The translations under genes were made by a program, and so were the position numbers. Below are positions 1 to 15,209 of a DNA stretch of 15,209 nt, in pieces. The notes under the pieces are model-generated. The model was not told where the DNA came from. It did no database searches and worked only from the letters and a program-made list of their open reading frames with translations. The stretch lies in NCBI GenBank assembly GCA_903916665.1, contig CAIWXP010000183.1, positions 1 through 15,209 of the forward strand, given 5' to 3'. Source of the DNA: Candidatus Iainarchaeum sp. GTDB lineage: Archaea; Iainarchaeota; Iainarchaeia; Iainarchaeales; 0-14-0-20-30-16. Every line of letters begins with the position of its first letter. Within the stretch, counting starts at the first letter, position 1.

Positions 1-1281
1 CGATCCATTTAATTTGGCAAATGCATCCAGGAAAATATAATTATTAATATCTAAATCTAATAAATTAATTGTTAATTTATTTGGAAAATTAAAAGGATAA
101 TTGTATATTGGAGCATAGGCATAAGAACACTCATTCAAAGGAATTATATTTAAATAATAACTTCCTGTATTCAAATCGCCTATTTTTGCTTCTAGGTTTG
201 AACTTACATCATTTAATTCGGACATTAAATTTGAATCTTTATAAACAGAAACATAAAAATTACAACCATCGTTAGCATCCAATGTTAAAGATAAATAATT
301 TCCATCAAAAAAACCAAATTCGAAAACTTTTGATGCTGCCAATGTATTTACATTAACTACAACATTAGAATCCATCAAAGAATATAAATTTTCATTATAA
401 TTCACATCTGCCCTTACTGTATAAGTACCTGCATTTAAATCTAAAAATTGAGTACTTCCTTGACTATCTGTAGTTTGTGATAGAGAATTATTTAATAAAG
501 TTATCTTTACTCCAGAAACAGGATTATTTGTATTTGCATCTATTGCTTTTACAACTAAATTATTTGTTTGTATAACAGGTTTTGGTTGTTCCGCATTCAA
601 TATAATAGAACAATTATTTTCAACACACGGTTTATCATAGGGTAAGAATCCAGGAACTGTTCCACTTATTTGCAAAGAACCACAATCAGAATCTTTTGAA
701 TAATCTTTAGTACCACTAATTGATATTAAATCTGTTTTACCAGAATTTATACATTTAACAGTTAATGTAATTTGAGAATTATACAGCAAAGTTACATCAG
801 GTGATTTATACACTGATAATTTAACAATTGTTAATTTAGGAGCTGGAATATCTGGTACAGATACTGGTTTAGTAATATCAACTCTATAACTTGAGTCTGC
901 TATGGTGTATTTTTTTGTTAACTCATAACCTTCTGTTTTTACTTCTAAATTAATATCTTTACCTTCGGGCAAATTAACGAGCAAAAGGTTTTGCTGTGTT
1001 GTTAAATCTTTAACAACGTCATCATAGGATATTGTTAAATCTAAATTGTCTGTAACTGGTTGTTTATTTAAATAAAAAGAAAAGGTAACATCCATAGTCT
1101 TAGGAATCAAAAAATAAATCAGAATACTTACTAATAATACAGCTACTACCACAACACCAATATAAATATACTTTTTAGGTATTGCCTTAAATTGTTCTGA
1201 AAAACTTTTGGTTTTTGCTTGACTAATTTCTCCTCTTAGTTCTGCTTCAATATTCTGGTCATAATCATTATTTTGTTCCAT
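1..1281 (-). CDS. N-terminal 427 codons of a third large membrane-anchored surface-protein paralog (gene C). It is 3'-partial and continues past the left window edge.
   Basis: ATG at 1281..1279 on the minus strand, with an in-frame stop 5 codons upstream (TAG, plus 1297-1299) and no other start candidate between them. I checked the first ~360 nt triplet by triplet and found no minus-strand stops; the full hand translation is open to position 1 (1281 nt = 427 codons exactly). It translates as MEQNNDYDQNIEAELRGEISQAKTKSFSEQFKAIPKK-YIYIGVVVVAVLLVSILIYFL-IPKTMDVTFSFYLNKQPVTDNLDLTIS... It has the same tail / TM / beta-sandwich / 4-Cys / prealbumin-like order as genes A and B. Confidence 0.8.
   Translation of the reverse strand, partial: MEQNNDYDQNIEAELRGEISQAKTKSFSEQFKAIPKKYIYIGVVVVAVLLVSILIYFLIPKTMDVTFSFYLNKQPVTDNLDLTISYDDVVKDLTTQQNLLLVNLPEGKDINLEVKTEGYELTKKYTIADSSYRVDITKPVSVPDIPAPKLTIVKLSVYKSPDVTLLYNSQITLTVKCINSGKTDLISISGTKDYSKDSDCGSLQISGTVPGFLPYDKPCVENNCSIILNAEQPKPVIQTNNLVVKAIDANTNNPVSGVKITLLNNSLSQTTDSQGSTQFLDLNAGTYTVRADVNYNENLYSLMDSNVVVNVNTLAASKVFEFGFFDGNYLSLTLDANDGCNFYVSVYKDSNLMSELNDVSSNLEAKIGDLNTGSYYLNIIPLNECSYAYAPIYNYPFNFPNKLTINLLDLDINNYIFLDAFAKLNGS
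403..561 (-). other. Carboxypeptidase-regulatory-like (prealbumin-fold) beta-sandwich domain, protein C
   Basis: LVVKAIDANTNNPVSGVKITLLNNSLSQTTDSQGSTQFLDLNAGTYTVRADVNYNE fits the family pattern h-x-h-x-h-x-D-x3-4-P-h-x-G-h-x-h-x-h ... TD-x2-G-x-h ... L-x2-G-x-Y-x-h. Assigned by eye; no HMM was run. Confidence 0.6.
610..753 (-). other. Four-cysteine module (C-x22-C-x18-C-x4-C) of protein C
   Basis: VKCINSGKTDLISISGTKDYSKDSDCGSLQISGTVPGFLPYDKPCVENNCSII. The Cys codons were checked at 751-753 and 610-612. The spacing is the same as in A and B. Confidence 0.6.
1108..1170 (-). other. Predicted transmembrane / signal-anchor helix of protein C (aa 38-58)
   Basis: YIYIGVVVVAVLLVSILIYFL is a 21-residue uncharged hydrophobic stretch. 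It is preceded by the basic AIPKK (positive-inside rule) and is the only such stretch in the visible protein. Confidence 0.75.
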
Positions 1282-1284
1282 AGT

Positions 1285-1289
1285 ATCAC
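1285..1289 (-). promoter_or_regulatory. Candidate Shine-Dalgarno-like element GTGAT, 3 nt upstream of the gene C ATG
   Basis: The minus strand reads ..TATGTGATACT-ATG. Same pentamer and near-identical spacing as at gene B. Confidence 0.4.
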
Positions 1290-1303
1290 ATAATAGCTAT
1301 TTT

Positions 1304-1311
1304 TATTTAAA
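1304..1311 (-). promoter_or_regulatory. TATA-box-like octamer TTTAAATA at -30..-23 from the gene C ATG (weak candidate internal promoter)
   Basis: It matches the archaeal TATA consensus TTTAWATA. The position would suit a leaderless or very short-leader transcript. Such octamers are expected by chance in DNA this AT-rich. Confidence 0.2.
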
Positions 1312-1313
1312 TC

Positions 1314-4300
1314 TTACTGTTGTTCACCTAATAATTTGAATATATTCCAATAGTATAAATATTTTCCTTCTTTATTTAAATAACACATATTGCTTTTTCC
1401 AATCTCATCAACTATATTTGATATGCTTTCAACACCATCTACTATATTTTGAGAATCTAATCCTTTTTGCAAAACATAGACCAAATATTCTGATATGTCA
1501 GAATAATCTAATCCTTCCTTCTTTTGTGATTTAACGGTTATAGATCCATCATTGGAGCTTTCAATAACATCATAGTATAAACTTGCAGGATAAAATAAAT
1601 TGTTTTTCTTAACAAATAATTTTGCATAGGTTGCACCATTTATAGTATTGGTATAATCTAAATTCTCATTTACCTGTTTAATATGTAAATCATTTGGTGC
1701 AAAATATAGTTCTCCATTTCCACCAATATTTGAAGATAAACTTACTTCCCCTTTTAATGCAATTGGTAAATTATCTAAAGTATATACTGTTTTATTTAAA
1801 GTATAATCAAATAATGCAGATTTACTTTTATCTGTTGAATAAGTTTTACTTGAATCATATTTTAATAGAGTATCTATTGTTGTGCCAATCCCATAATCAG
1901 GCGTAGGAGTGTAGGGCATATAATAAAATAAATGATCTGGCATTAAATAGGTATTAAAAGATAAATATACTCTAAAATTATTATCTGAATCTACAATTAA
2001 TCTTGCATCATAGATTCCGGATTGTAATACTCCAATTGGTTCTTGTTTATAGGATAAAAATGAAATATTTAATCCCGAATTTTGTAAAAATCCTTTTTGT
2101 TGATAAATATCCAATGCTTCTTTTGTATAATTATCATATAATAATTGTACCTTAAAACTAGATTCTGCATTTAATTTTGCTTTGGCCTGTAAATAATTTA
2201 CAAACTGTTTTAAATTACAACCATATTGTGATCCAAAGTCACAATTAACATCATCAGTAAAACTTATTTTAGGCATAGCATCTTGACCAGTTAAACCGCC
2301 ACCAAAACAATTTGATATTTGTGCAGCCATAAATCCTGGCTTTGGTTTTTCTTTATATACTCTAATATTTGAACTATTGGCTTTTATAATAGCAATAAAT
2401 TCCAGTGTAAAAGTAGTTAATTGACCAATATTATAGCCACATTCCGAACTATTAACTGTACAAACTATATCAACATTATAATTTAATTTAACAAAGGATT
2501 TAAAATCTAAAATTGAACTATAATCAATGTCCGCGCCATTATATGCAGTACCAACTGCTTGACCAAAATTAATTACAGATTGCGAATTTCTCATTAAATT
2601 AATCCATTTAGATTTAACATAACCCACATAAGCATCATAGTAATTTGTAGTTGCAGTAACATATTTTTTAGCCTCGGCATCAGAATAATATTTTTTCTGT
2701 AAATTATTTGACTGTATGTTTGATGAAATATAATCTTTTAAACTATTTTCTCCATTCTTTCCATAGACAGTATCTAAACCATTACAACTATAATTAACTA
2801 CAGAATCTGAATTTGGACCCGCATCGGTCGAATCTTTTAAAATAAACGATTTAGTTATGTAACTGTTATTATAATTATCAAAAAATAATTTTGAATAGGC
2901 TAAATATATAGGATCTGTTTCTGCTAAATTTATATCATTACCTGAACTATCTTTAGTTGACATAACTAATTTATCTAAACAAATCTTTGTTGTTTTATCT
3001 GTTCCGCTATACTCTAAAGGATAGTAAATAGTATAGTCTTTAAAATTAGAATTCAAAACAGAATTTATTGATTTATAGGCATCATCAGAAGTAAAATTAA
3101 TTATATTTCCAAAACTAATTCCTGTATTTGTTAAAAGATAATTATTAATAGTTTTATCTACTTCTACAGCATCATTAAAAATAACATTATTTGTACTATC
3201 AATGGTTGCATCACTAAATTTTTCTCTTTTTACATCATCAGTAATATTTGTTAATTTACAAATTGTTAAAATAGAATAGGTTCCTTCCCCCCAATCACAA
3301 CCACCCCAATAATCATCATCTAAAGAAACATAGCCCCCAAAAAGATATTCTTTCACACCAGGAGATAAACTATCATTAGTCCAAAAGGATTTCTCAAAGC
3401 CCCATAAATCACCTTGTTGTTTATTGGCCATATATATTTTAACTGGTTCAAAACCATTTGGACAAAAAGTTGCTGCACTATTATGTATTCCATAACACCA
3501 GCCCTTAACACTAGCCGTACCTAAGTTAATAAAGTATGGAAAATCTTGATTGTTTTTTATTTCTGTACCTATTTGTTCAACATATTTACTAAGGTATTCT
3601 TTATATTGTATAGGATCTTTATAATTATCTTTCCCAAAAAATTTACTTGTATCTTCACCCGCAAAACTATTCATAAAATCAAAAGAATAATCTTTTTTTG
3701 ACGGTATACTTTTTGAATAAATAAAATATCTAAAATTTGGAGCTTCCCATAACCAACCACCAAATTCATCAGTAGCAAATAATTTAAAACTATATTTTGA
3801 AAAATCCCCATTTACTTTATCTTTTAATACTTCATTATAATTATCATATTTATAGGTATTTTGATCTTGACCGTTCTTAATACCTGTTAAAAAATAAAAT
3901 AAATTATCACGAAAAGGGTGCCATATGCTAAATTCGGGTATTATTATATCATTATAAATACTACTTACAACTGATTCTAATCCATGTGGATAATATTCGT
4001 TTTTATAAACAGTAACTGGCAAATTATTATTCAAATCAGTAATGAATGGATTTTTTAAAAAATATTTGTTTTGTGTAGAACTTTCAACATTTATCTTTAA
4101 ATCTTTAACATAATCGATGGTAGTAGAATTATCTAATTTGTATAAACTTAATAATACGGCTCCAGAAAAATTATCTGGTCTATCTAAACTAAAATTAATA
4201 TTTTGATCAGGATCTAAAGTTATTTTGTTACCAAAAGATACTGGATAATTCACAGATGAAATCGATAAATAATCATCATTAACTTTACAATATTCATCAT

Positions 4301-7300
4301 CGGATTTACACAATTGAATAGTTACTGGCTTATTACAGCCGTTGCTAATTTGTAATGGTAAAGAGTCAAATTCAAAATAATCAGTAACCTGATCTCCTGG
4401 AAATGTTGCTGGTAAATCTGCGTTATCTGCCATTTTTGCTTCTCCGGGTTTCTCTATAATATTTCCTTGAGCTTTTGATCTTTCACCATCCAAATAATAT
4501 GGAAATTGATAACCGTCTGTGCCCTCTAATGAAAACAAATCTTTATTTTGATTAGTTGTATCAACACCAAAGTATAAACAATTTTCATAGGCTCTGAAAG
4601 ATACATCCAATTTTAAATTTTTAGGAATTGAATTAGTAGAATTATAATTTGATTGATCTGTTGAATAGCCCCCTAAAACATTAAATGTTAAATGTGCATC
4701 AACATTAGACATTGCTAAATCATTCAAATCATCAACAGATAATTTAATTCCGTAGGTATAATCTTGACCAGCTAAAACAACTTCTGGCAAAGGAATAATT
4801 AGGTTTTTACTAATTATACTAGAATATTTATCTTTACCATCTTTTGAAATTTTTATTGCAATAGGAATATCTGAATTAACACTTAAATTAACATCTTTAA
4901 ATTTATAATTAGAAAGACCATTAAGTTCACAATTATTAATAATATGTAAATCAAAACTTTCTTCACTAGCTTCTAAAAAAGTTACATTTGATATTTCTTT
5001 ATCATCTTTTCTTAAATCAACCTGCAAACAATCATCACTATTACTCGGCTCTCCATTAAATATAAACTTAATATCCAAAGGTATATTCTTTGTAAATACT
5101 GTATCCAACAATGATTCTATTGTTGTTAAAAAAGAATTATCAACATTTACTGGAATATATTTAAAATTTAAAAATGAGCTAAACAAAGATATATCTGGTG
5201 CCATCATTAAAGCATCAGGATTAAAAGAAATTGGTAAACTTAACTTATCGTTTGAATGCAATAAAGACCCATCTTTAAATTTGCCTTCCATAACATCTTT
5301 TTTAAATAATAAATTTACAAAATCTATGAAAACAGAAGAATCCCAATAATATTTTAAATCATAAATATTCAAATCATAGTTTGAGGTATTATTTATATCA
5401 ACAAAAACATTTGGCTTTGTACCATCTGTAGGATAATTTATTGTTGCAGATAATTTATCTTTAACAGTAAAAAAATTAAAATCAGAAACAATTTCTTTTG
5501 CAAATGGTTGATAGCTTTGCTTAAAAACAACTATTTTAATTTTATCGCCTATACCTAAAGGATTTGTAGTTACATCAATTGAACCATCATTACCCGTATA
5601 ACTAGTATTAACATATTTCCATATTCCATTAAATGAATCATAGTATTTAACTTCTGCACCTACAACAGGGCCAACATCATTTGTTACTCTAATTAAAATA
5701 TCATTTTTAATATAGGGCACTATTATATCATTTGGTTTTACTTCAACATTTAATTTTGCTTTATCACTAGAAGTTAAATTTATTTTATATTCTCCGTAAG
5801 TATTATTCCAATCATCTTTATATAATTTAAACACCATTGAACTACTATCTGGTGTTAATAATTGATAATCAAAATTAAAATCAATATAATTTCTATAGTC
5901 TATTATTTGATCATTTAAATATATTGGACCGCTTGATAAGCCAGATTCTGTTTTATTTCCAAAAATATCTGTGATTGATAATTTTCCTTGAAGAATATTT
6001 AAAAATAATTCACCAACATCCTGTTTAATACTTGAACTCCCTGATTCTTTTAAATTATAAATTGCCATTTTTTTAATATCTGAATTGTTATCAAATAATA
6101 TTTTACCAAAAACATTTCCTTTAGATGCAATTTCATGACTATTACTTAATGCATCATTCCCTGAATAGGCATTAACACATATAGGATCAGAACAAATTTG
6201 AGTACCTAATTTTCTAGAAATATTATTTAAACTTAAATCTTTTTTATCAGTACCAAACCAATACCAGAAAGAAATACTATCTCCGCCGGGTGTTGATAAA
6301 ATAACATTATTTGTTATTAAAACTCTAATTGAATACATTATTTCAGTTTCATTATCAAAAGTACTTTCAAAATCTGCTTCAGATGTAAAACTTTTTGATT
6401 TAAATAAGAAATTATCATCTGTATTTGCACCAATTAATTTTGTATCATCAAAAGAACTATTATAATTTGAATAAAAAATAGTATTTCCTAAACTATCCAT
6501 TGATATTACTTGTAGTTTTGATAACTCTATATTTTCATCTGTTTTATTTCCCGCAATTCCATAAAAAAATAATTTATTTGGTTTGTTTTTTGGCACTTTA
6601 ACTTTAAATGCATAGTAATATTCATTCATAGGTAAAAGTTCATTTGCGGGTTTTGACAATTGACTATCAGAATAAATTCCTTGAAATTCTATTGTTAATT
6701 TTTCCAAAGGGTTGTTTGGAATTATTGGAGTTAATTCTAAATTAAAACTATAGCTACCATTATTTTCCATAAAAAATGTTTGAGAATATAAATCAAGATA
6801 ATCCTGCTTTGTCACTTTAAAATAAACACTTTCTAAACTTTTAATTTGTGTTGATGCACAATTTTGATTTTTATCGACAAAAAATGTTGATTCCAATCCT
6901 CTCTCACTAGAATAAACTTCAATTATTGCATCCCCAATTGGTTTTTTATTATCAGTTAAACAAACATTTACTGTAGAATTGCCCCAGGCAACAGGTAAAA
7001 CAACAGAAACTGATGTTAATGATAATGATTTTGATTCCTGAACATTAAACGTTGCAATTCCAGATAAATAATTATGTTTTAATTTTACATCATATTGTCC
7101 TTTAGGCAATATTAAATAGTATATTCCATTATAATCTGTTGTTATTATGCCTATGTTTGTTAGGTATTCTTTATTTTCATTTTCAAACCAAATTCTTGCG
7201 AAAGGAATTGGATTTTGCGTAGTTGAATCAATTACTTGAACAACCACATTCTGATCAGTAAAAGAATTATATTTTCTAATTGTTTTTTCTATTGTTTTGT

Positions 7301-8606
7301 CCCCTGAATTTTGATCATAATTTACAGTTATATCTTCAGAAAGATATTTATCATTATAGGGTACATCTAAAGATGATGATATAATATAATTGCCTTGGTT
7401 TACCAATGGAAATACAGTTTGAGTATTAGAATCATATTTTTTAGTTTCTAAAATATTTTGATTTTCATCCTTTAAAAAAATAGTACCACTAACAAAATTA
7501 TCATCTTCTACTTTAAAATTAATATTTAAATTTCCCATGGGCAAAACATCTAAAACAAATGATACAGTTACTGCATTTCCTGCGGTTATTATTGCTTGTT
7601 TAGTTTGTGCAGCATACTTTCCACTAGGATCTGATAAAATAATATTATAGGTTCCTGATAATAATTCTGAGCTATAGGATCCAAAATCTCCAGTTATACC
7701 AGAATCAATTAATTCTTTAGTTTCAGAATTATCTCTTATTTCTAAGGTCATATTACTTGCTGGTTTTCCATCTTTACCATTAACATATACAATTAATTTA
7801 TTTTTGGGAACATTTTGCATAACTTTTACATCTGAACTTAAATTATCTTGAACTAATATTTTACACATTCCAAAATTACAATTTTGCTTTACTCCTGGAT
7901 AATTATCAATATTAGCGATGATTGAAACAGTATTACAAGGAATCTTTTGATCATTTAAAACTCCTTTAATTAAATTATATTGCATATTAAAATCTTGACA
8001 TGATACACTAATTACAGCATCTTTTTGTAATGTTCCATTTTGAGTAACCAATATAAATGAAAATAAATTCTCCTTTTGATCTGTTTTAGTTGTTGTAATT
8101 GTTGAATTTGAAACAATATTTAAAATAATTTCTGATTTATTTGTTATAAATTGTTTTGTTGTTTGAGTCATATCTTTTAATGTTATCTTAGCATTAATTG
8201 TTGAATCGCTTAAAGCATTAAATGTAACCGGGCCTTTAACATTTCTTCCTGTGCCAACTAATTCAACTGGATCTTTTGATGTTAATGTGATTGTATAGGA
8301 ATCAGTTAACAATTTTCCATCTAGATTTATTTTCAAAGTATAACTATTCATAGCAGATGAAAATACAGTAAAATAAACTATTACTGCAATAATAATTAAA
8401 AATAATACTAAAAAGAAAATCATTGAAGGCATTACTTTATCAATTACATTTGTTACACTTCGTAAATGTAATTTATCAATAAGAGAGTAATATTTATTTG
8501 ATAATTTTTTATACCAACTTTCATTCAAAGTTAATTCTTTGTTTTTAGGAGGTTCTTGAATATCTATATTTCTATCAAGGCTTGTTTCGTTTAAATTATC
8601 AGCCAT
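1314..8606 (-). CDS. Giant (2430 aa) single-pass anchored, Cys-paired, beta-sandwich-rich surface protein (gene B). No family name can be assigned.
   Basis: Uninterrupted 7.3 kb ORF in about 27% GC DNA, where stops should be frequent. The ATG at 8606 is immediately preceded by an in-frame TAA, so the start is unambiguous. Stop is TAA at 1314-1316. N-terminus: a 61-aa charged tail, then the hydrophobic helix MIFFLVLFLIIIAVIVYFTVF. It is colinear with its paralog, gene A. Confidence 0.92.
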   Translation of the reverse strand: MADNLNETSLDRNIDIQEPPKNKELTLNESWYKKLSNKYYSLIDKLHLRSVTNVIDKVMPSMIFFLVLFLIIIAVIVYFTVFSSAMNSYTLKINLDGKLLTDSYTITLTSKDPVELVGTGRNVKGPVTFNALSDSTINAKITLKDMTQTTKQFITNKSEIILNIVSNSTITTTKTDQKENLFSFILVTQNGTLQKDAVISVSCQDFNMQYNLIKGVLNDQKIPCNTVSIIANIDNYPGVKQNCNFGMCKILVQDNLSSDVKVMQNVPKNKLIVYVNGKDGKPASNMTLEIRDNSETKELIDSGITGDFGSYSSELLSGTYNIILSDPSGKYAAQTKQAIITAGNAVTVSFVLDVLPMGNLNINFKVEDDNFVSGTIFLKDENQNILETKKYDSNTQTVFPLVNQGNYIISSSLDVPYNDKYLSEDITVNYDQNSGDKTIEKTIRKYNSFTDQNVVVQVIDSTTQNPIPFARIWFENENKEYLTNIGIITTDYNGIYYLILPKGQYDVKLKHNYLSGIATFNVQESKSLSLTSVSVVLPVAWGNSTVNVCLTDNKKPIGDAIIEVYSSERGLESTFFVDKNQNCASTQIKSLESVYFKVTKQDYLDLYSQTFFMENNGSYSFNLELTPIIPNNPLEKLTIEFQGIYSDSQLSKPANELLPMNEYYYAFKVKVPKNKPNKLFFYGIAGNKTDENIELSKLQVISMDSLGNTIFYSNYNSSFDDTKLIGANTDDNFLFKSKSFTSEADFESTFDNETEIMYSIRVLITNNVILSTPGGDSISFWYWFGTDKKDLSLNNISRKLGTQICSDPICVNAYSGNDALSNSHEIASKGNVFGKILFDNNSDIKKMAIYNLKESGSSSIKQDVGELFLNILQGKLSITDIFGNKTESGLSSGPIYLNDQIIDYRNYIDFNFDYQLLTPDSSSMVFKLYKDDWNNTYGEYKINLTSSDKAKLNVEVKPNDIIVPYIKNDILIRVTNDVGPVVGAEVKYYDSFNGIWKYVNTSYTGNDGSIDVTTNPLGIGDKIKIVVFKQSYQPFAKEIVSDFNFFTVKDKLSATINYPTDGTKPNVFVDINNTSNYDLNIYDLKYYWDSSVFIDFVNLLFKKDVMEGKFKDGSLLHSNDKLSLPISFNPDALMMAPDISLFSSFLNFKYIPVNVDNSFLTTIESLLDTVFTKNIPLDIKFIFNGEPSNSDDCLQVDLRKDDKEISNVTFLEASEESFDLHIINNCELNGLSNYKFKDVNLSVNSDIPIAIKISKDGKDKYSSIISKNLIIPLPEVVLAGQDYTYGIKLSVDDLNDLAMSNVDAHLTFNVLGGYSTDQSNYNSTNSIPKNLKLDVSFRAYENCLYFGVDTTNQNKDLFSLEGTDGYQFPYYLDGERSKAQGNIIEKPGEAKMADNADLPATFPGDQVTDYFEFDSLPLQISNGCNKPVTIQLCKSDDEYCKVNDDYLSISSVNYPVSFGNKITLDPDQNINFSLDRPDNFSGAVLLSLYKLDNSTTIDYVKDLKINVESSTQNKYFLKNPFITDLNNNLPVTVYKNEYYPHGLESVVSSIYNDIIIPEFSIWHPFRDNLFYFLTGIKNGQDQNTYKYDNYNEVLKDKVNGDFSKYSFKLFATDEFGGWLWEAPNFRYFIYSKSIPSKKDYSFDFMNSFAGEDTSKFFGKDNYKDPIQYKEYLSKYVEQIGTEIKNNQDFPYFINLGTASVKGWCYGIHNSAATFCPNGFEPVKIYMANKQQGDLWGFEKSFWTNDSLSPGVKEYLFGGYVSLDDDYWGGCDWGEGTYSILTICKLTNITDDVKREKFSDATIDSTNNVIFNDAVEVDKTINNYLLTNTGISFGNIINFTSDDAYKSINSVLNSNFKDYTIYYPLEYSGTDKTTKICLDKLVMSTKDSSGNDINLAETDPIYLAYSKLFFDNYNNSYITKSFILKDSTDAGPNSDSVVNYSCNGLDTVYGKNGENSLKDYISSNIQSNNLQKKYYSDAEAKKYVTATTNYYDAYVGYVKSKWINLMRNSQSVINFGQAVGTAYNGADIDYSSILDFKSFVKLNYNVDIVCTVNSSECGYNIGQLTTFTLEFIAIIKANSSNIRVYKEKPKPGFMAAQISNCFGGGLTGQDAMPKISFTDDVNCDFGSQYGCNLKQFVNYLQAKAKLNAESSFKVQLLYDNYTKEALDIYQQKGFLQNSGLNISFLSYKQEPIGVLQSGIYDARLIVDSDNNFRVYLSFNTYLMPDHLFYYMPYTPTPDYGIGTTIDTLLKYDSSKTYSTDKSKSALFDYTLNKTVYTLDNLPIALKGEVSLSSNIGGNGELYFAPNDLHIKQVNENLDYTNTINGATYAKLFVKKNNLFYPASLYYDVIESSNDGSITVKSQKKEGLDYSDISEYLVYVLQKGLDSQNIVDGVESISNIVDEIGKSNMCYLNKEGKYLYYWNIFKLLGEQQ
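1317..2327 (-). other. Conserved C-terminal (membrane-distal) module of protein B (aa ~2094-2430), family unknown
   Basis: It aligns without large gaps to A aa ~1838-2178. Shared motifs are NCFGGG[LM]TG, QLLYDNYT[KR]EALDIY, YLMPDHLFYYMPYTPxPDYGIGTTI, IGGNGE and Y[IL]YYWNI. Confidence 0.6.
5493..5708 (-). other. Prealbumin-like domain 4, protein B (aa 967-1038)
   Basis: KNDILIRVTNDVGPVVGAEVKYYDSFNGIWKYVNTSYTGNDGSIDVTTNPLGIGDKIKIVVFKQSYQPFAKEI. Confidence 0.5.
6729..6977 (-). other. Prealbumin-like domain 3, protein B (aa 544-626)
   Basis: STVNVCLTDNKKPIGDAIIEVYSSERGLESTFFVDKNQNCASTQIKSLESVYFKVTKQDYLDLYSQTF. Confidence 0.5.
7032..7253 (-). other. Prealbumin-like (CarboxypepD_reg-like) domain 2, protein B (aa 452-525)
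   Basis: NVVVQVIDSTTQNPIPFARIWFENENKEYLTNIGIITTDYNGIYYLILPKGQYDVKLKHNYLSG. Confidence 0.6.
7185..7262. repeat. Second high-identity island, copy in gene B (encodes FTDQNVVVQVIDSTTQNPIPFARIWF)
   Basis: 7 mismatches in 78 nt (hand count, about 91%) against 13988..14065 at offset 6803. The peptides are 25/26 identical. Confidence 0.85.
7551..7802 (-). other. Prealbumin-like beta-sandwich domain 1, protein B (aa 269-352)
   Basis: KLIVYVNGKDGKPASNMTLEIRDNSETKELIDSGITGDFGSYSSELLSGTYNIILSDPSGKYA. This is a looser match to the same pattern. Confidence 0.45.
7863..8000 (-). other. Four-cysteine module (C-x20-C-x18-C-x4-C) of protein B (aa 203-248)
   Basis: VSCQDFNMQYNLIKGVLNDQKIPCNTVSIIANIDNYPGVKQNCNFGMCKIL. 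The Cys codons were verified at 7998-8000 and 7863-7865. Confidence 0.6.
8127..8412. repeat. Dispersed direct repeat, copy 1. It covers the 5' coding region of gene B (TM helix plus first beta-sandwich) and is near-identical to 14924..15209.
   Basis: Ungapped alignment at a constant offset of 6797 nt. Hand count: 13 mismatches in the 241-nt core (8172-8412 vs 14969-15209, about 95%). There is a divergent 14-nt patch at 8158-8171, then identity resumes back to 8127. Confidence 0.9.
8361..8423 (-). other. Predicted transmembrane / signal-anchor helix of protein B (aa 62-82)
   Basis: MIFFLVLFLIIIAVIVYFTVF is preceded by a Lys/Arg-containing 61-aa tail and followed by SSA|MNS. It is the only long hydrophobic stretch in 2430 aa. 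Confidence 0.8.
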
Positions 8607-8610
8607 TTAA

Positions 8611-8615
8611 ATCAC
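8611..8615 (-). promoter_or_regulatory. Candidate Shine-Dalgarno-like element GTGAT, 4 nt upstream of the gene B ATG and overlapping the gene A TGA stop
   Basis: The minus strand reads GAG-TGA-TTTAA-ATG. GTGAT is complementary to the AUCAC part of the conserved 16S rRNA 3' end (..GAUCACCUCCU). The same pentamer lies 3 nt upstream of the gene C ATG. Confidence 0.4.
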
Positions 8616-11600
8616 TCTTGACCTAATAATATATTTGTAATGTTCCAATAGTAAATATACTCGTTATCTTTCATTGTATAACAAATATCGCTAGTAGCTA
8701 TTTTATCATTTATTTCAGACATATTACTAACTTGATAAACTTGTGCATCGGTATCTACAGAAGTATTTGATTTAACAACATAGGCCAAATATAATTGATC
8801 ATCACTATAATCAACGTTGGGTCTTTTCTTTATTGTTACTGTTGAATTATCTTCTGATTTTATTACATCGTAGGTTATACCTGCAGAATAAATCTTATCA
8901 TTCTTTTTAACAAATATACCTTCGTAGGATACTTCACCTTTCATATCCACAGATAAATCATCGGCAATTAAAGTTATTGGTTTTATTCTTAATTCATTTG
9001 GATAAAATGTAATTTCACCATTTCCTCCAATATCAGTTAAGGCAACTCTTCCAACCATGGTAATAGGTAAATTATCTTTAGAATATAAACTTTCAATTAA
9101 ATTATAGGTAAACAAAGGAGAGATGTTTGTGTTTGTAGAATTAGGATAGGAGATTCCAGATTTATAAAAAAGTGTTCCACCAATTGTTGTACCAATACCA
9201 TAGTCCGGATTTGGTGTATAAGGCATATAATAAAATAAATGATCGGGCATCAAATAAGTTTCATAGGTCAAATAAACTTTGAAATTAGTATCTGATTCTT
9301 TATATAAAGTTCCACTATATATTCCTGTTGGCAATATACCCAATGATTCTCCACTAGAAGATAGGAAAGATACAGTTACATTTTTGTTACTTAAAAATGA
9401 TTTATTATAAATATCCAATGCTTCTCTTGTATAATTATCATATAATAATTGTGCAACAAAATCAACTTTAGTTCCATTATTACTATTTGATAAAACTTTT
9501 AAATAATCTACAAAATCAGACATATTACAAATATATTTTGATCCTACACTACAATCATTAACTTTTTCATTAAAACTAATTTTAGGAATTACATCAGATC
9601 CAGTCATACCCCCACCAAAACAATTTGAGTTTTCATTAACAACATATTTCGGTTTTGGTAATTCTTTATATAATCTTACTCCTGATGCTTCACCAGTAAT
9701 ATCCAACTTATCATAGGACACTTCATTAAAATCTCTATCAATAGCATAAAAATTTGGTCTAAATTTATCTTTATTTAATCTACAAACTGTTAATATTTTA
9801 TAGTCTCCCATGCCTGTATTTCTATATCCTTTCCCGCCCATGGTATCCAATCCAATATCTCCACCAAAGATATAGGCTTTATAACCATTTTCAATATAAG
9901 GATCTTTTACCATAAACTTTTTAGTTATTGAATCTTCTCCGCCATGAACTAATTCTAAAGTAATATTAACAGGATCATAATTCTCAGGACAGAAAGTTAC
10001 TGCCGAAACATTTGTTCCACCACCACTATTTCCTCTAAAAAAACCAAATGCCGCATTAATAAAATATGGATATTTCTCTTCATTTAATTTTGTACCTATT
10101 TCTTTAACATAATCATATATTTGATGGTAGGGTATTGGGTCTAAATAATGTCCAGTAAAATATACTTCGTGTATTTTACACTGATCAAAATAATCTGAAT
10201 TTTCATTAATTGAACTAAAATCATAATTTAATTTTGGAAATAAACTATAATTTTCATCTCCAACATATACCATATAGGCATAACCTGCTCCTTCATGTTC
10301 CTGTGTTCCACAAGTAGAAGAACAGTGTGATTGATAAGCACCACAAAAATCATCATAACTTCTTCCAGCAATAGTATCCAATCCTGCATCTCTATAAATA
10401 TCATCCCAATATTGATAACCATCAAATACTAGACTTAAAAATCCTTTTTTAATAATATTTGAGTATTCCATACTTCCTACACTAAATCCACAACCTCCAC
10501 CACCTACAGATTTAGGAGATCCTGCACCAGAAGTATCTTCCCAATCACCATGGGTTTTAAAAAAATAATTACTATCTGATAATTTTCCTCCAAATAAAAT
10601 AGCATTTACATCAAATTTACCCTTTATTACTGATCCAACTCTACAATTTCTACCATCATTGTCCCAAAATGGAGAATCTGGAACATTATTACTCAAAAGA
10701 GTATAATAATCCATATTAGGATAATATTCATTTTTGAAATAATAAAAAGGCATTTTTGTATTCATATCTAAAATAAATGGATTAACAACAAAATTATTTG
10801 CACCTACAGATCCTTCTATATTTATTTTTACATCTTTAACAATTTGATTAATTTCTCTTGTTTCAGTTGAATTATCTTCAATACTTAATAATGTTAATGG
10901 AATTATTGCTGCTCCAGAAAAACTATCTGGTCTCATTAATGAAAATTTATAATTTTGGTCAGCAGCTAAATTTATTTCTGTATTGGGTTGCCCCAAGAAA
11001 GAACTTGATACTAAATCCAATGGTTCAGTACCAGATATGTTACAATATTTGTCCAAATCAGGATTATTAGTATTACAAAGTTTAAAATTAATTGTCTTAC
11101 CACAACCATTACTTACTACTAATGGTAATTCGGTAATTTCATATCTATCATTATAAACATTTTTAGCATTTACTGAATCCTGTGAATCTAAACTATCTCT
11201 TGAATAAAGTATAGTTTCATTATTATCTACTGCTCTTTCACCCACTAAATAATAAGGTAATTTTAAAATATCTGTATTTTCTAAAATATAATCATTTTCA
11301 CTTGCACCAATTGTTTTTGCAGTATCGCTATCTAAACCAAATTTCAAACAATCTTCTGCAGTTTTAAATTGCAACGATAATGTTTCGTTGGTTGATTTAG
11401 AATCTAATAAATCAGCTGATGCAGTAGATTTATATTTTCCAACAACATCTGCAGTTAAATCAAAGGCTGCACTAGACATTGCTAATTCATTAAAATCACC
11501 CACAACATCTAATTTCAAAATATATACTGCTGGTTCAACATCTGAACCCCCATCTAAAGAATATTTTAAAGGGATTTGTTTATCTTTATTAGTATTTCCA

Positions 11601-14600
11601 GAAAATAATACTTCTCCAGTTTTATCAGAAACTTCAACACTAATATCTAAACCAGTATTTAATTCTAAAAACACATCCTTAAATTTATATTTAAATCCAT
11701 TGGCTAAAGTACAATCATTAAAAACTCTTAAATATACTTTATCTTCTTTTGAATCTAAAAATACAATATCTTTTAATGGTGCAGTTTCTGCAGATTCAAA
11801 TTGTAATCTTAAACAAGGTTCATTTCCTGGTTTACCTTCAAAACCAAAATTAAAAGTAATGGGTATATTTTTATACATTCTTATATCGTTTGATTTTGCA
11901 ATTAATTCAGATACCCCATCTTTTGGTGTAAAATTAAAATACAAAGATCCAGAAATTGTTTTGGTTCCATCTAAAGTTTGTAATAATTGTGGATCATAAA
12001 CAACTGGTAAACTTAATTTCTTTTCAGTATCTGTTGAATGCAATATAAATCCATTGGCAAATTTATTTGTCATGTTTTCAATTGTTAAAAATCTATTAAT
12101 AAATTCTTCATCTGTTTTTGTATAATCCCAATAATAATTCAAATCATAAATATTTAAATCATAGCCCAAATCATTTTGAACTTCTACTTCTTTTTGTGGA
12201 TTTGCAGGATCAGTAGGATAAATAACATTAATAGTTAGTGGTCCCTTTGGATCAAAGCCATTAAAATCAGAATTTATTTCTTTAACATTAGCTTTATAAT
12301 TATCTGCCGATACAACTAATTTAATTTTGTCATTTCTTGCAACAGGATTTGTATTTAATTCAACATAGCCTGTTTTATCAGTATAGGCTGTTTTATCATT
12401 TAATAAATGCCAATTACTATTTGAATATTCATAATATTTAATTTCTGCACCATGCACTGGATAATTATCTTGACCCAAAACAACTAATTTAATATCATTA
12501 GAAATATAGGGTACAATATAATCAGGATAATTTACTGTTAATTCACCATTGGCACTATTCATAAATTGTAAAGAATAAACTGTATTATTTATATCCCAAA
12601 AATCTTTATATGCATTAAAATTCAAACTAGCTGAATTGTTAGTAACTAAACTATAATTAAAATCAAAATCTAAATATTGACCTTGATTAACTGGTTGATT
12701 ATCAACATATATTGGTCCAGAACTCATTGCTTTCGAATCTTTAGAGCCATCAACATTATTTATACCATATTCTGCACCATTTAATGCAACACTTAAATCC
12801 AATAATTCTGCTTTTGATTTAATTGCTTTTTCGTCAGAATTATACAATGCAAAATTATAATCTTTATTACTAAATCTTACCTTACCATATATTCTACCAA
12901 CAGCAGATGCATTATAGGGACTAGTTATTGAATTGTTTGCAGAATCATAGGCATCAACACAAATTTCTGTTTCACAAATATTTGTACCTATTTTCTTAAC
13001 TATTTTTGTTAAATTTATTTTATCATTGTCTAAACCAAAACCATAATTAAAAACAATTGAATCACCATTTACTGCACTAGGATTAACATTTGTTGTTATA
13101 CTTGTTTTAACAACATATTGCAATTCAACATCATTTTCTGCAGGTGCATCAAATCTATGAATATTTGCAAAACTCTTTGCTTTATATGCGAAATCATCTT
13201 CCACATCTAAAATAGTTCCACTCATCAAATCCAAATTATTTTGTTTATAATCTGGATAATAATTTATAATTCCTGAATCATTTACTAATCTTGTTTGCAT
13301 TTTTGAATTAGTTGCATTTTCATCTTTTAAATCACCGGTTACACCAACAAATTTTATTGTTCTATTATTATTAACATAGGCTTTAGGCACTTTAACTTTA
13401 AAAGAATAATAGTAATCCTTTGAAGTATCTAATTTTGTTGCAGGTTCTTTTAAATATGAATCATTATAAATACCATCAAATTGATAATCTAAATTTTGAA
13501 CAGGCTCAACAGGTCTTGTTTTTTCTAATACTATATCAATGTTATAAGTTTCATTATTTAAAACAAAATATGTTTGAGTATATTTTTCATAATAATCTGT
13601 TTTTTTAACATGGAAATAAATATTTTCTAAACTTTTTACTTGTTTTGTTGCACAATTATTTTGAGCATCCAAATAAAAACTAGATTCTAAACCATCTGTA
13701 CTATACACATCAACATAGGCATCATTTAAATCGCCGTTAGAAATATCTTTTAAACAAACATTAATTGTTGCATTACCCCATGCTACTGCTAAAGAAACAT
13801 TTTTTGTTGTCATTGTTAATGATTTTGTTTGGTCAACAGAAAATCCTTGTATTCCAGATAAATAATAATGTTTCAAATTAACATTATAACTACCAACGGG
13901 CATAACTTTATAAAAAATACCATTTGCATCTGTTAAAACAAATGCGCCATCAACACCATAGTCTAATAAACTACCATCAACAGAAGTAAACCAAATTTTT
14001 GCAAAGGGAATTGGATTTTGTGTAGTTGAGTCAATTACTTGAACAACCACATTCTGATCTGTGAAAGGATTTGTTTTTCTTATACTGTATTTTACATCCA
14101 TATCTCCAGAATCTTTATCATAGGTAATTGGTAAAACATCTGCAATATAATCATTTGTTTTATCTGCACTTAATGATAATGATAAATTATAACTTCCTTT
14201 TTTAGTTATTGGCATTACCAAAGAATTATTAGAATCAAAAGGTTTTGATTGCAAAATTAATTGATTTGCATCTTTAAAAAATAATGTGCCATTAACATAA
14301 TTTTTATCTTCAACATCAAAACTAATATTTAAATTTCCAATTGCTTTTTCTTGCATAGTAAAATAAATTGGATTTTGGTTTCCTGCATGTACTTCTACAT
14401 TTTGTGTTTGTGATGCATACACATTATTTGGATCTGAAACTAAAATAACATATTTTCCTTCTGCTAAATCAATATTATATGCACCAAAATCTTTTGTTTT
14501 TCCAGAATCAATTAATTCTTGACCTGTAGAATCTTCTCTTACTTCAACAGTAAAATCTTTTATTGGATCATTATTTGCATATCTTACATAAACAACTAAT

Positions 14601-15209
14601 CTATTTTTTGTTAAATTAACTGGCGCTTTACTTAAATTATCAACAAACATTAATCTACAAAGACCAGGATTACAACTTTGTTTTACACTAGGATAGTTTT
14701 CAACATTTGCAGTTATACTAACATTATCACAACTAATTTTAATATCACTCAAATTTCCTTTTACAACTGGCAATTCATTATTATAATCTTGACATTCTAT
14801 TTTAACTTTTCCATCTTTTTCTAAAAAACCATTTTGAGTATTAAAAATAAATGAAAATATATTCTCTTTTTGTTTTGTTACTGCTTTTGAATCAGATTTT
14901 GTTGGAGAAGTTAAACTTAATACAATTTCTGATTTATTTGTTGTAAATTGTTTTATTATGGGCGTTAAATCTTTTAATGTTACTTTAGCATTAATTGTTG
15001 AATCGCTTAAAGCATTAAATATAACCGGGCCTTTAATATTTTTTCCTGTACCAACTAATTCAACTGGATCTTTTGATGTTAATGTAATTGTATAGGAATC
15101 AGTTAATAATTTTCCATCTAGATTTATTTTCAAAGTATAGCTATTCATACCCGATGAAAATGCAGTAAAATAAACTATTATTGCAATAATAATTAAAAAT
15201 AATACTAAA
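8612..15209 (-). CDS. Giant (at least 2198 aa visible) paralog of gene B (gene A). It is 5'-partial; the true start lies beyond the right window edge.
   Basis: The ORF track starts it at Met 15148, but the frame stays open to 15209. The 20 extra codons read LVLFLIIIAIIVYFTAFSSG before MNSY, matching aa 66-85 of protein B (LVLFLIIIAVIVYFTVFSSA before M86 NSY). So Met 15148 is internal and the TM helix and tail lie upstream. Stop is TGA at 8612-8614. Confidence 0.92.
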   Translation of the reverse strand, partial: LVLFLIIIAIIVYFTAFSSGMNSYTLKINLDGKLLTDSYTITLTSKDPVELVGTGKNIKGPVIFNALSDSTINAKVTLKDLTPIIKQFTTNKSEIVLSLTSPTKSDSKAVTKQKENIFSFIFNTQNGFLEKDGKVKIECQDYNNELPVVKGNLSDIKISCDNVSITANVENYPSVKQSCNPGLCRLMFVDNLSKAPVNLTKNRLVVYVRYANNDPIKDFTVEVREDSTGQELIDSGKTKDFGAYNIDLAEGKYVILVSDPNNVYASQTQNVEVHAGNQNPIYFTMQEKAIGNLNISFDVEDKNYVNGTLFFKDANQLILQSKPFDSNNSLVMPITKKGSYNLSLSLSADKTNDYIADVLPITYDKDSGDMDVKYSIRKTNPFTDQNVVVQVIDSTTQNPIPFAKIWFTSVDGSLLDYGVDGAFVLTDANGIFYKVMPVGSYNVNLKHYYLSGIQGFSVDQTKSLTMTTKNVSLAVAWGNATINVCLKDISNGDLNDAYVDVYSTDGLESSFYLDAQNNCATKQVKSLENIYFHVKKTDYYEKYTQTYFVLNNETYNIDIVLEKTRPVEPVQNLDYQFDGIYNDSYLKEPATKLDTSKDYYYSFKVKVPKAYVNNNRTIKFVGVTGDLKDENATNSKMQTRLVNDSGIINYYPDYKQNNLDLMSGTILDVEDDFAYKAKSFANIHRFDAPAENDVELQYVVKTSITTNVNPSAVNGDSIVFNYGFGLDNDKINLTKIVKKIGTNICETEICVDAYDSANNSITSPYNASAVGRIYGKVRFSNKDYNFALYNSDEKAIKSKAELLDLSVALNGAEYGINNVDGSKDSKAMSSGPIYVDNQPVNQGQYLDFDFNYSLVTNNSASLNFNAYKDFWDINNTVYSLQFMNSANGELTVNYPDYIVPYISNDIKLVVLGQDNYPVHGAEIKYYEYSNSNWHLLNDKTAYTDKTGYVELNTNPVARNDKIKLVVSADNYKANVKEINSDFNGFDPKGPLTINVIYPTDPANPQKEVEVQNDLGYDLNIYDLNYYWDYTKTDEEFINRFLTIENMTNKFANGFILHSTDTEKKLSLPVVYDPQLLQTLDGTKTISGSLYFNFTPKDGVSELIAKSNDIRMYKNIPITFNFGFEGKPGNEPCLRLQFESAETAPLKDIVFLDSKEDKVYLRVFNDCTLANGFKYKFKDVFLELNTGLDISVEVSDKTGEVLFSGNTNKDKQIPLKYSLDGGSDVEPAVYILKLDVVGDFNELAMSSAAFDLTADVVGKYKSTASADLLDSKSTNETLSLQFKTAEDCLKFGLDSDTAKTIGASENDYILENTDILKLPYYLVGERAVDNNETILYSRDSLDSQDSVNAKNVYNDRYEITELPLVVSNGCGKTINFKLCNTNNPDLDKYCNISGTEPLDLVSSSFLGQPNTEINLAADQNYKFSLMRPDSFSGAAIIPLTLLSIEDNSTETREINQIVKDVKINIEGSVGANNFVVNPFILDMNTKMPFYYFKNEYYPNMDYYTLLSNNVPDSPFWDNDGRNCRVGSVIKGKFDVNAILFGGKLSDSNYFFKTHGDWEDTSGAGSPKSVGGGGCGFSVGSMEYSNIIKKGFLSLVFDGYQYWDDIYRDAGLDTIAGRSYDDFCGAYQSHCSSTCGTQEHEGAGYAYMVYVGDENYSLFPKLNYDFSSINENSDYFDQCKIHEVYFTGHYLDPIPYHQIYDYVKEIGTKLNEEKYPYFINAAFGFFRGNSGGGTNVSAVTFCPENYDPVNITLELVHGGEDSITKKFMVKDPYIENGYKAYIFGGDIGLDTMGGKGYRNTGMGDYKILTVCRLNKDKFRPNFYAIDRDFNEVSYDKLDITGEASGVRLYKELPKPKYVVNENSNCFGGGMTGSDVIPKISFNEKVNDCSVGSKYICNMSDFVDYLKVLSNSNNGTKVDFVAQLLYDNYTREALDIYNKSFLSNKNVTVSFLSSSGESLGILPTGIYSGTLYKESDTNFKVYLTYETYLMPDHLFYYMPYTPNPDYGIGTTIGGTLFYKSGISYPNSTNTNISPLFTYNLIESLYSKDNLPITMVGRVALTDIGGNGEITFYPNELRIKPITLIADDLSVDMKGEVSYEGIFVKKNDKIYSAGITYDVIKSEDNSTVTIKKRPNVDYSDDQLYLAYVVKSNTSVDTDAQVYQVSNMSEINDKIATSDICYTMKDNEYIYYWNITNILLGQE
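8615..9637 (-). other. Conserved C-terminal (membrane-distal) module of protein A (aa ~1838-2178), family unknown
   Basis: Same motifs as the B module. YLMPDHLFYYMPYTPNPDYGIGTTI is encoded at 9182..9256, against 1875..1949 in B. Confidence 0.6.
8629..8636 (-). promoter_or_regulatory. A/T-only octamer AAATATAT at -30..-23 from the gene B ATG, inside the 3' end of gene A (very weak candidate promoter)
   Basis: Same distance from the ATG as the element upstream of gene C. It cannot be distinguished from background composition. Confidence 0.12.
12278..12499 (-). other. Prealbumin-like domain 4, protein A (aa 884-957)
   Basis: NDIKLVVLGQDNYPVHGAEIKYYEYSNSNWHLLNDKTAYTDKTGYVELNTNPVARNDKIKLVVSADNYKANVKEI. 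Confidence 0.5.
13526..13774 (-). other. Prealbumin-like domain 3, protein A (aa 459-541)
   Basis: NATINVCLKDISNGDLNDAYVDVYSTDGLESSFYLDAQNNCATKQVKSLENIYFHVKKTDYYEKYTQTY. Confidence 0.5.
13829..14059 (-). other. Prealbumin-like (CarboxypepD_reg-like) domain 2, protein A (aa 364-440)
   Basis: QNVVVQVIDSTTQNPIPFAKIWFTSVDGSLLDYGVDGAFVLTDANGIFYKVMPVGSYNVNLKHYYLSG. Confidence 0.6.
13988..14065. repeat. Second high-identity island, copy in gene A (encodes FTDQNVVVQVIDSTTQNPIPFAKIWF)
   Basis: See the copy in gene B. Confidence 0.85.
14351..14602 (-). other. Prealbumin-like beta-sandwich domain 1, protein A (aa 183-266)
   Basis: RLVVYVRYANNDPIKDFTVEVREDSTGQELIDSGKTKDFGAYNIDLAEGKYVILVSDPNNVYA. It is colinear with B domain 1. 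Confidence 0.45.
14657..14794 (-). other. Four-cysteine module (C-x20-C-x18-C-x4-C) of protein A (aa 119-164)
   Basis: IECQDYNNELPVVKGNLSDIKISCDNVSITANVENYPSVKQSCNPGLCRLM. The Cys codons were verified at 14792-14794 and 14657-14659. Confidence 0.6.
14924..15209. repeat. Dispersed direct repeat, copy 2 (5' coding region of gene A). It probably continues beyond the window edge.
   Basis: See copy 1. Similarity is still high at the last base of the window. Confidence 0.9.
15158..15209 (-). other. Predicted transmembrane / signal-anchor helix of protein A (truncated by the window edge)
   Basis: Codons upstream of the ORF-track Met read LVLFLIIIAIIVYFTAF, nearly identical to the TM helix of protein B. 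Confidence 0.75.

Follow-up and report, generated by a model that had tools for sequence, protein, structure and literature searches.

Paralogous giant proteins of a conserved cell-envelope locus as candidate surface-contact fibres in a DPANN archaeon related to Iainarchaeum

Large surface proteins that are made of multiple immunoglobulin-like (Ig) folds or are rich in cysteines have been proposed as the host-contact molecules of DPANN archaea (PMC6792436; 10.1101/2023.10.27.564410). The described examples, namely Nanobdella aerobiophila MJ1_0160 and its relatives, NEQ300 of N. equitans and the large Cys-rich surface proteins of Ca. Huberarchaeum, comprise about 900–1300 amino acids (aa) with four to eight Ig folds and mostly carry signal peptides or C-terminal transmembrane helices. 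Here, we describe a stretch of 15,209 bp from Candidatus Iainarchaeum sp. (contig CAIWXP010000183.1; hereafter the window), which is one entire public contig and which encodes three giant proteins, A, B and C, with the contig ends lying inside A and inside C. Like the proteins cited above, these giants belong to an ultra-small archaeon, have a long ectodomain of β-sandwiches, lack a family annotation and diverge fast. They differ from them in their size (2100–2500 aa), in the number of sandwiches (about 13), in an N-terminal anchor behind a conserved tail, in a tip of 700–900 aa without assignment and in their operon partners, five small membrane proteins that we call s1–s5. No sequence homology between the two groups was detected in family searches. 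Considering architecture and role jointly, we regard it as reasonably probable that the giants are membrane-anchored surface fibres for contact or attachment, encoded in a dedicated membrane module.

Giant rod-shaped proteins are also familiar from bacteria. In the repeat adhesins SiiE, LapA and MpIBP and in those of Bap type, an Ig-like rod holds a distal ligand-binding region off the cell, and these proteins are characterized by near-identical tandem repeats and by RTX/type 1 secretion system signals or LPXTG anchors. The giants described here resemble them in the rod-plus-tip principle, but their sandwiches are divergent, self-BLAST reveals no internal repeats, neither RTX nor LPXTG/anchor models of Pfam and NCBIfam match and the host is an archaeon. 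The SPEARE giants of Ca. Nanohaloarchaeum antarcticus are likewise giant DPANN proteins thought to act at the host interface; their protease, adhesion and restriction-endonuclease domains have no counterpart here that Pfam or NCBIfam could detect. α2-Macroglobulin and complement, the bacterial members of which are N-terminally anchored, are strings of macroglobulin (MG) sandwiches and rank among the better fold matches in the PDB, behind the ASH/Ig arrays of cilia; the giants nevertheless lack the thioester motif as well as TED, CUB and RBD domains, and the global TM-scores are 0.1–0.2. Finally, SlaA/SlaB of the Sulfolobales and other archaeal S-layer proteins offer a parallel as envelope proteins made of multiple sandwiches, the genes of which lie side by side and which have a partner anchored in the membrane, yet the giants show no homology to them, have another anchor topology, are twice the size and bear a hypervariable tip.

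The window has a GC content of 25–29%, and its minus strand holds the three giant open reading frames (ORFs) as well as all long frames but one; the coordinates of window features given below refer to this strand unless stated otherwise. Gene B is complete (positions 1314–8606), running from an ATG start to a TAA stop and encoding 2430 aa (family member P0001). Gene A (8612–15209) is free of stops from 15208 to its TGA at 8612–8614 and comprises 2198 codons plus the stop; its 5′ end is cut by the contig end, and from the alignment to B we estimate that about 65 N-terminal residues are missing. The ATG of gene C (1–1281) lies at 1281 and its frame runs without a stop as far as base 1, so that only its first 427 codons are present and its 3′ part is cut. 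Five nucleotides (8607–8611) separate A from B and 32 nucleotides (1282–1313) separate B from C. These sizes and gaps are exactly those given in an earlier note on this DNA, which had been made from the sequence alone and which had described the window as a one-strand array of paralogous giant genes with room for nothing else. No tRNA, Rfam family or tandem repeat (TRF) was found in the window. The other long frame, an antisense one (11292–11996, plus strand, 235 stop-free codons) inside A, is unusually long for 26% GC, and we rejected it as probably spurious because it has no counterpart in the paralog B or in any ortholog.

The paralogy claimed in the note also holds. A and B are 43–48% identical over their whole length by BLAST, whereas A is 38–40% identical to its orthologs P0002–P0004; A and B are thus mutual closest relatives, which we interpret, from the comparison of the sequences, as a lineage-specific tandem duplication of a B-type gene. 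The note had considered the two proteins to be colinear end to end. This is the case over most of their length, with the exception of a hypervariable stretch (aa 1500–1700 of A) and of an insertion of 290 aa that only B possesses (aa 1785–2074). C, described in the note as a more distant member, is only marginally related to A and B by BLAST (E of 0.004–0.01), but hhalign aligns about 330 N-terminal columns colinearly with a probability of 97.4% (E 1.2e-11) across a region that comprises helix, first sandwich, cysteine module and prealbumin-like domain, pairing the same two peptides that the note had compared; with a full-length C ortholog the probability reaches 98.4% (E 5.5e-15). This kinship is limited to the N-terminal ~330–390 residues, and nothing relates the C-type proteins to A and B beyond residues ~400–780. 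C is 39% identical to a 1539-aa protein of a related locus (L001), the gene of which is located after a B-type gene, and C-type orthologs range from 1094 to 2018 aa. Relatives of the window carry a further type of giant, which we call X-type, that is homologous to B-type giants essentially end to end (hhalign probability 100%, E 3e-80, 1703 columns).

Hydropathy reveals exactly one strongly hydrophobic segment per family member, located near the N-terminus. In B this predicted transmembrane helix (aa ~63–85, 8352–8420) stands behind a charged tail of 62 aa and in C (aa ~38–59, 1105–1170) behind one of 37 aa, while in A its remaining part occupies aa 1–19 of the open frame (15152–15208). The tail of B ends in TNVIDKVMPS, which is conserved in most B-type and in X-type relatives. 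More generally, a juxtamembrane motif (T/V)DxIDK(V/I/Y)xPS directly precedes the helix (B aa 51–61, 8424–8456); it is present in the N-termini of P0005, P0006, P0007 and P0009 and of all X-type giants, and is absent from P0002–P0004 and from most C-type proteins. This motif might serve as a signal for docking or targeting.

Beyond the helix, a four-cysteine module was located by regular expression with the spacing C-x20-C-x18-C-x4-C in A (aa 139–184, 14657–14794) and B (aa 203–248, 7863–8000) and C-x22-C-x18-C-x4-C in C (aa 177–224 from the ATG, 610–753). Its cysteines are invariant across the family, and the module is conserved in every ortholog, including all those of C type. A and B contain 26 cysteines each, all beyond the helix and many of them invariant across the family, which suggests extracellular disulfides, for which such a pattern is typical. 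A prealbumin-like sandwich is also found in the three proteins. It matches CarboxypepD_reg (PF13620) in A (aa 206–286, 14351–14593; E 1.8e-13, 51.1 bits) and in B (aa 454–526, 7029–7247; E 8e-12, 45.8 bits), which has a second, weaker stretch of this kind; in C (aa 247–292, 406–543) the score on PF13620 is 28.2 bits, under the Pfam gathering score of 32.3 that served as the cut-off, and it is SpaA (PF17802) that passes with 27.7 bits against 23.1. All five family members scanned have CarboxypepD_reg matches, which define a domain and not a functional family. The N-terminal layout that the note had ascribed to each of the three proteins is therefore present as regards the helix, the cysteine spacing and the sandwich; the charged tail of A is cut off.

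The stalk continues in B with about eight consecutive β-sandwiches (aa 619–1545, 3972–6752). AlphaFold2, run on an alignment of ten sequences, models this part with a mean pLDDT of 74.1 as almost purely β, and no Pfam domain matches it. Foldseek returns 244 PDB matches with E ≤ 1e-3, headed by ASH/Ig arrays of ciliary central-apparatus proteins, MG arrays of α2-macroglobulin and complement, mastigoneme and the Ig domains of PrgB. Since these matches have TM-scores of only 0.1–0.2 and identities of 7–10%, we consider them to be generic rather than family-specific, and the model describes tandem sandwiches that belong to no specific family and do not constitute a new fold. The suggestion in the note that much of aa 630–2430 of B may be structurally novel hence does not apply to residues 619–1545, which are ordinary sandwiches; domains can be placed up to residue ~1545, and it is the last 700–900 residues that are left without assignment.

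These last residues begin with the hypervariable region. In A (aa 1500–1700, 10109–10711) it is rich in Gly, Asp, aromatic residues and Cys, its family conservation is 0.08–0.30 and its identity to B is 4–22% with many gaps; in BLAST it matches itself alone, with no similarity to other family members. The conservation profile and BLAST place the equivalent region of B at aa 1545–1700 (3507–3974). The insertion specific to B (aa 1785–2074, 2385–3254), delimited by the gap in the A/B alignment, is an orphan with no similarity inside the family and no Pfam match. Both the hypervariable region and the insertion lie near the C-terminal end with conserved sequence on either side. The conserved C-terminal domain that follows (A aa 1837–2198, 8615–9700; B aa 2074–2430, 1317–2387) is 48% identical between A and B and was recognized from their alignment and from its invariant residues. 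It spans about 360 residues with invariant Cys, Gly and aromatic positions, the motifs NCFGGG-TG, LLYDNY and PDHLFYYMPY and a terminal C-Y...YYWN hairpin. It holds no conserved residue of catalytic appearance, the His of PDHLFYY not being invariant. None of the 11 family members has a Pfam domain in the tip region. The AlphaFold model of A 1440–2198 (11 sequences), mostly β or coil, has a mean pLDDT of 48.9, with values below 50 for residues 1–258 of the tile and of 50–83 for the last ~320, and at this quality it gave no Foldseek match with E ≤ 1e-3 in the PDB or BFVD. The last 700–900 residues are therefore best termed unclassified, the model being too poor for their fold to be called new. 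A scan of the window for repeats shows no template/variable pair like those of diversity-generating retroelements, the sole near-identical repeat being the 5′ tract of A and B discussed below, and neither the window nor the listed related loci contain a reverse transcriptase domain.

The gene order of the relatives gives the giants a context. Wherever the sequence is long enough, an X-type giant (2412–2518 aa) is followed by a B-type giant (2098–2458 aa), usually by a C-type giant and then by s1–s5. The succession of a B-type and a C-type giant on the same strand is seen in L001, L004, L008 and JGI 3300072015, and also in L003, with an AAA_14 gene in between; the window meets this order as A (B-type), B (B-type) and C. 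s1–s5 are small polytopic membrane proteins of about 140, 120, 81, 112 and 114 aa, two of which have Gly-rich C-termini. Their genes always lie 3′ of the giants in the same order (L001 21520–23286; L006 17411–19270; L029 995–2921; L032 4939–6531), and they are 28–51% identical between loci whose giants are about 26% identical. No Pfam or NCBIfam model matches them, and the s2 family amounts to 25 clusters among 5.8 billion. The same gene order has been assembled independently in at least eight samples beside core genes, with CofD, a TGS-domain GTPase, ribose-5-phosphate isomerase (RpiA), a wyosine radical-SAM enzyme (Taw1), ribosomal L3/L4 and FtsZ as neighbours, and the module thus sits in a core chromosomal neighbourhood. 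The relatives belong to DPANN archaea near Iainarchaeum: the FtsZ encoded on the 101-kb contig of one member is 66–95% identical to those of Iainarchaeum and Micrarchaeota metagenome-assembled genomes (MAGs), and a NOG1 GTPase of archaeal/eukaryal type is encoded beside another locus. This context agrees with the expectation of the note that the array may extend on both sides, since relatives have an X-type giant upstream and the rest of C with s1–s5 downstream. The note had also pointed out that very large surface proteins recur in small-genome episymbionts, and the source lineage is a small-celled DPANN archaeon related to Iainarchaeum.

The family is rare. A word-indexed search of 5.8 billion clusters yielded four other full-length proteins, and an exhaustive HMMER search of 1.84 billion representatives with a profile of the C-terminal 1100 positions yielded 12 proteins, five of them full-length. 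One additional locus came from JGI metagenomes, and the family profile, used for a word-indexed search for homologs, contributed a single fragment more. Identity among family members falls to 21–26%. A scan of the GTDB representative genomes with the family alignment returned nothing; its back-translated patterns are known to miss divergent members, as shown by JAQTTP01, which belongs to this collection and carries one. The family profile found only a chance-level match in PDB sequences (E 0.034), PADLOC found nothing, and looking up protein B exactly brought up no longer contig. Searches of Pfam, NCBIfam, PDB, PHROGs and phage records assigned the ectodomain to none of the known adhesin, S-layer or viral-fibre families; the outcome that would have refuted the note, an assignment of the full ectodomains to such a family, thus did not occur. 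We also found no description of this gene module in the searchable literature.

From these observations we propose that the contig covers part of a conserved chromosomal locus that serves the cell envelope and encodes paralogous giant surface fibres. Each protein would start with a short cytoplasmic tail and a single N-terminal transmembrane helix (N-in, C-out), continue with a stalk of about 1450 residues and about 13 β-sandwiches, among them the four-cysteine module and the CarboxypepD_reg/prealbumin-like domains, and end in a distal tip made of the hypervariable stretch and of the conserved, Cys-bearing C-terminal domain. A sandwich domain measures about 4 nm, and 13 of them would make a stalk about 50 nm long that holds the tip away from the membrane, where it may contact another cell or a substrate. 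s1–s5 would probably serve the giants as a membrane platform. That the variable regions of A and B differ completely suggests diversified tip contacts, possibly two binding specificities, while gene conversion would keep the 5′ ends of the two genes alike. A multi-subunit surface structure seems to us preferable to a set of ad hoc adhesins because s1–s5 are fixed partners, the cytoplasmic tail is conserved and at least two ancient paralogs have been kept. As a tentative and rather doubtful extension of this scheme, the X-, B- and C-type giants together with s1–s5 may represent an undescribed, lineage-specific archaeal surface apparatus, in which s1–s5 would act as a platform or insertase gripping the TDxIDKVMPS tail and the helix, the C-terminal 700–900 residues would adopt a new fold that recognizes the partner cell and the duplicates would provide alternative specificities.

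Several points weigh against anchored contact fibres. The helix is followed by small residues (S-S-A/G) and could belong to a signal peptide that is cleaved, although its n-region would be unusually long; the proteins would then be released. N-glycosylation sequons do not exceed what composition predicts in B (36 versus 36 expected) or in C (three versus six), and their enrichment in A is mild (42 versus 28.5 ± 5 expected). With a pLDDT of 49 for the C-terminal tile, the case for binding is drawn from the position and the variability of the tip. Iainarchaeota are not known to be episymbionts, and the window itself holds no taxonomic marker gene, its placement near Iainarchaeota being derived from the exclusive homology of its genes to this group and from a similarly low GC content. 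Lastly, the module is conserved strictly vertically among core genes and always keeps two ancient paralogs, which would fit a structural part of the envelope equally well.

This last point leads to the idea of a structural coat, in which the giants and s1–s5 would form the main envelope layer, S-layer-like or a fibrillar canopy, with a mechanical or protective function. Archaeal S-layer proteins are typically multi-Ig-fold and fast-diverging (10.1101/2024.05.28.596244; 10.1101/2023.10.27.564410). A coat would also agree with a module that is inherited vertically at one chromosomal site by housekeeping genes although its members are 21–26% identical, with two or three paralogs always retained together and with membrane partners that are better conserved than the giants. 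However, a separate S-layer protein of 1039 aa is predicted for an Iainarchaeota genome (10.1101/2024.05.28.596244, supplement), and Pfam, NCBIfam and PDB-sequence searches match the giants neither to a known S-layer family nor to an S-layer protein of solved structure. For lattice subunits, it would be unusual to have an N-terminal anchor with a cytoplasmic tail of 60 aa, a length of 2100–2500 aa and a hypervariable tip specific to each paralog, and a tandem duplicate with an unrelated tip, as in A versus B, resembles a diversification of specificity. We therefore hold a coat to be unlikely, but it does compete with the attachment role that the note had assigned to its surface-fibre family: the anchor, the strings of sandwiches and the cysteine spacings fit such a family, whereas attachment as its role remains our interpretation. 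If the helix were instead a cleavable signal peptide, the giants would be released or held non-covalently, for instance as matrix or biofilm fibres. The small residues after the helix, which are FSSA/G in both A and B and ASSA in P0009, would suit this, and the Nanobdella study mentions that N-terminal transmembrane helices may belong to cleaved signal peptides (10.1101/2023.10.27.564410). The tail ahead of the helix nonetheless counts 37–90 residues, and its motif TDxIDKV(M/F)PS is common to X and B, two ancient paralogs, an argument for a functional N-terminus that stays on the protein. So long an n-region is, moreover, atypical for Sec signals. Secretion thus appears quite improbable to us.

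The fold matches of the stalk raise the question of a protease trap like the bacterial ECAM/YfhM, in which anchored MG-domain proteins would guard the envelope. Foldseek aligns bacterial and eukaryotic α2-macroglobulins and complement over about 1000 columns (E of 1e-13 to 1e-15), the Pfam domain bMG3 gives weak matches below the cut-off (for example A 1188–1253, E 4.8e-5) and an N-terminal anchor is a feature of the bacterial proteins too. The low TM-scores and identities mentioned above and the better scores of ASH/Ig arrays nevertheless suggest a generic match between sandwiches. The CxEQ thioester motif is found in none of the 14 family members (A, B, seven orthologs and five X-type paralogs), Pfam detects no A2M, TED or receptor-binding domain and the C-terminal tile, as far as a model with a pLDDT of 48.9 can tell, is mostly β or coil and not an α/α toroid, all of which makes a trap very improbable. 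Even less credit can be given to fibre genes of a virus or mobile element, or to an assembly artefact. The genes are admittedly very large and AT-rich, mobile-type genes are present inside the module in some relatives and the contig ends in a 92% repeat, but no match was found in 50,697 phage records (tblastn), in IMG/VR or in PHROGs, nor in BFVD for the model of the tip at E ≤ 0.001; the relatives have cellular neighbours in an order assembled independently in at least eight samples, and frames of 2198–2430 codons stay open at 26% GC.

Giant surface proteins are already known in ultra-small symbionts and a stalk of sandwiches is an ordinary architecture. What sets the present case apart is the combination of size, N-terminal anchoring with a conserved tail, an unclassified tip and a conserved eight-gene module. 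For contact, recognition and attachment in DPANN archaea, and in Iainarchaeota in particular, the locus provides a tangible candidate that is conserved and has a fixed place in the chromosome, with two or three giant fibres and five small membrane proteins. Should the tip be the recognition element, it would provide a handle for predicting partner specificity from metagenomes, and the module could serve as a lineage marker.

The window adds to this a fresh tandem duplication with a probable gene-conversion tract, showing how the family diversifies. The 5′ tract of A (14917–15209, 293 nt) is 92% identical in DNA to positions 8120–8412 of B, with 23 mismatches and a longest exact run of 36 nt, as against 69–77% identity for most of the other A/B DNA repeat pairs found; at the protein level, identity is 94% over the first 50 residues versus about 43% overall. 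From this local excess, the tract looks like the product of gene conversion between the tandem paralogs. The repeat may also have contributed to the assembly break at the contig end, although its longest exact run is just 36 nt.

The module locus seems to tolerate insertions. Genes of mobile or defence type lie between or beside those of the module in L002 (8542–9939 and 16348–17097), L003 (1659–3279 and 9839–11047), L030 (1–7445) and L032 (3596–4846), and encode AAA_14/DUF4143 ATPases, Schlafen-AlbA2/HATPase_c_4, AbiEii, ORF6N and DUF1016 proteins. In L006 (1–472, continuing upstream on JAQTTP010000003.1), a protein of 2603 aa with faint Big_1, bMG3, MG4 and SpaA matches is encoded about 2 kb upstream of the X-type giant, which brings the number of giants in a stretch of 30 kb of this Iainarchaeum MAG to at least three. 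At the most divergent locus (JGI 3300072015, P0009), a MacB_PCD/FtsX-type permease is encoded among small membrane-protein genes after the third giant, a hint that this lineage has an extrusion partner of ABC type.

In the spacer between B and C (1282–1313), TTTAAATA at 1304–1311 is centred 26 nt upstream of the start codon of C by manual count, and could possibly be the archaeal TATA box of a leaderless C transcript; in DNA with 74% AT, a chance match to such a TATA-like sequence is likely. Independently of this, GATTTAAAT comes after the stop of A (8607–8614) and likewise after that of B.

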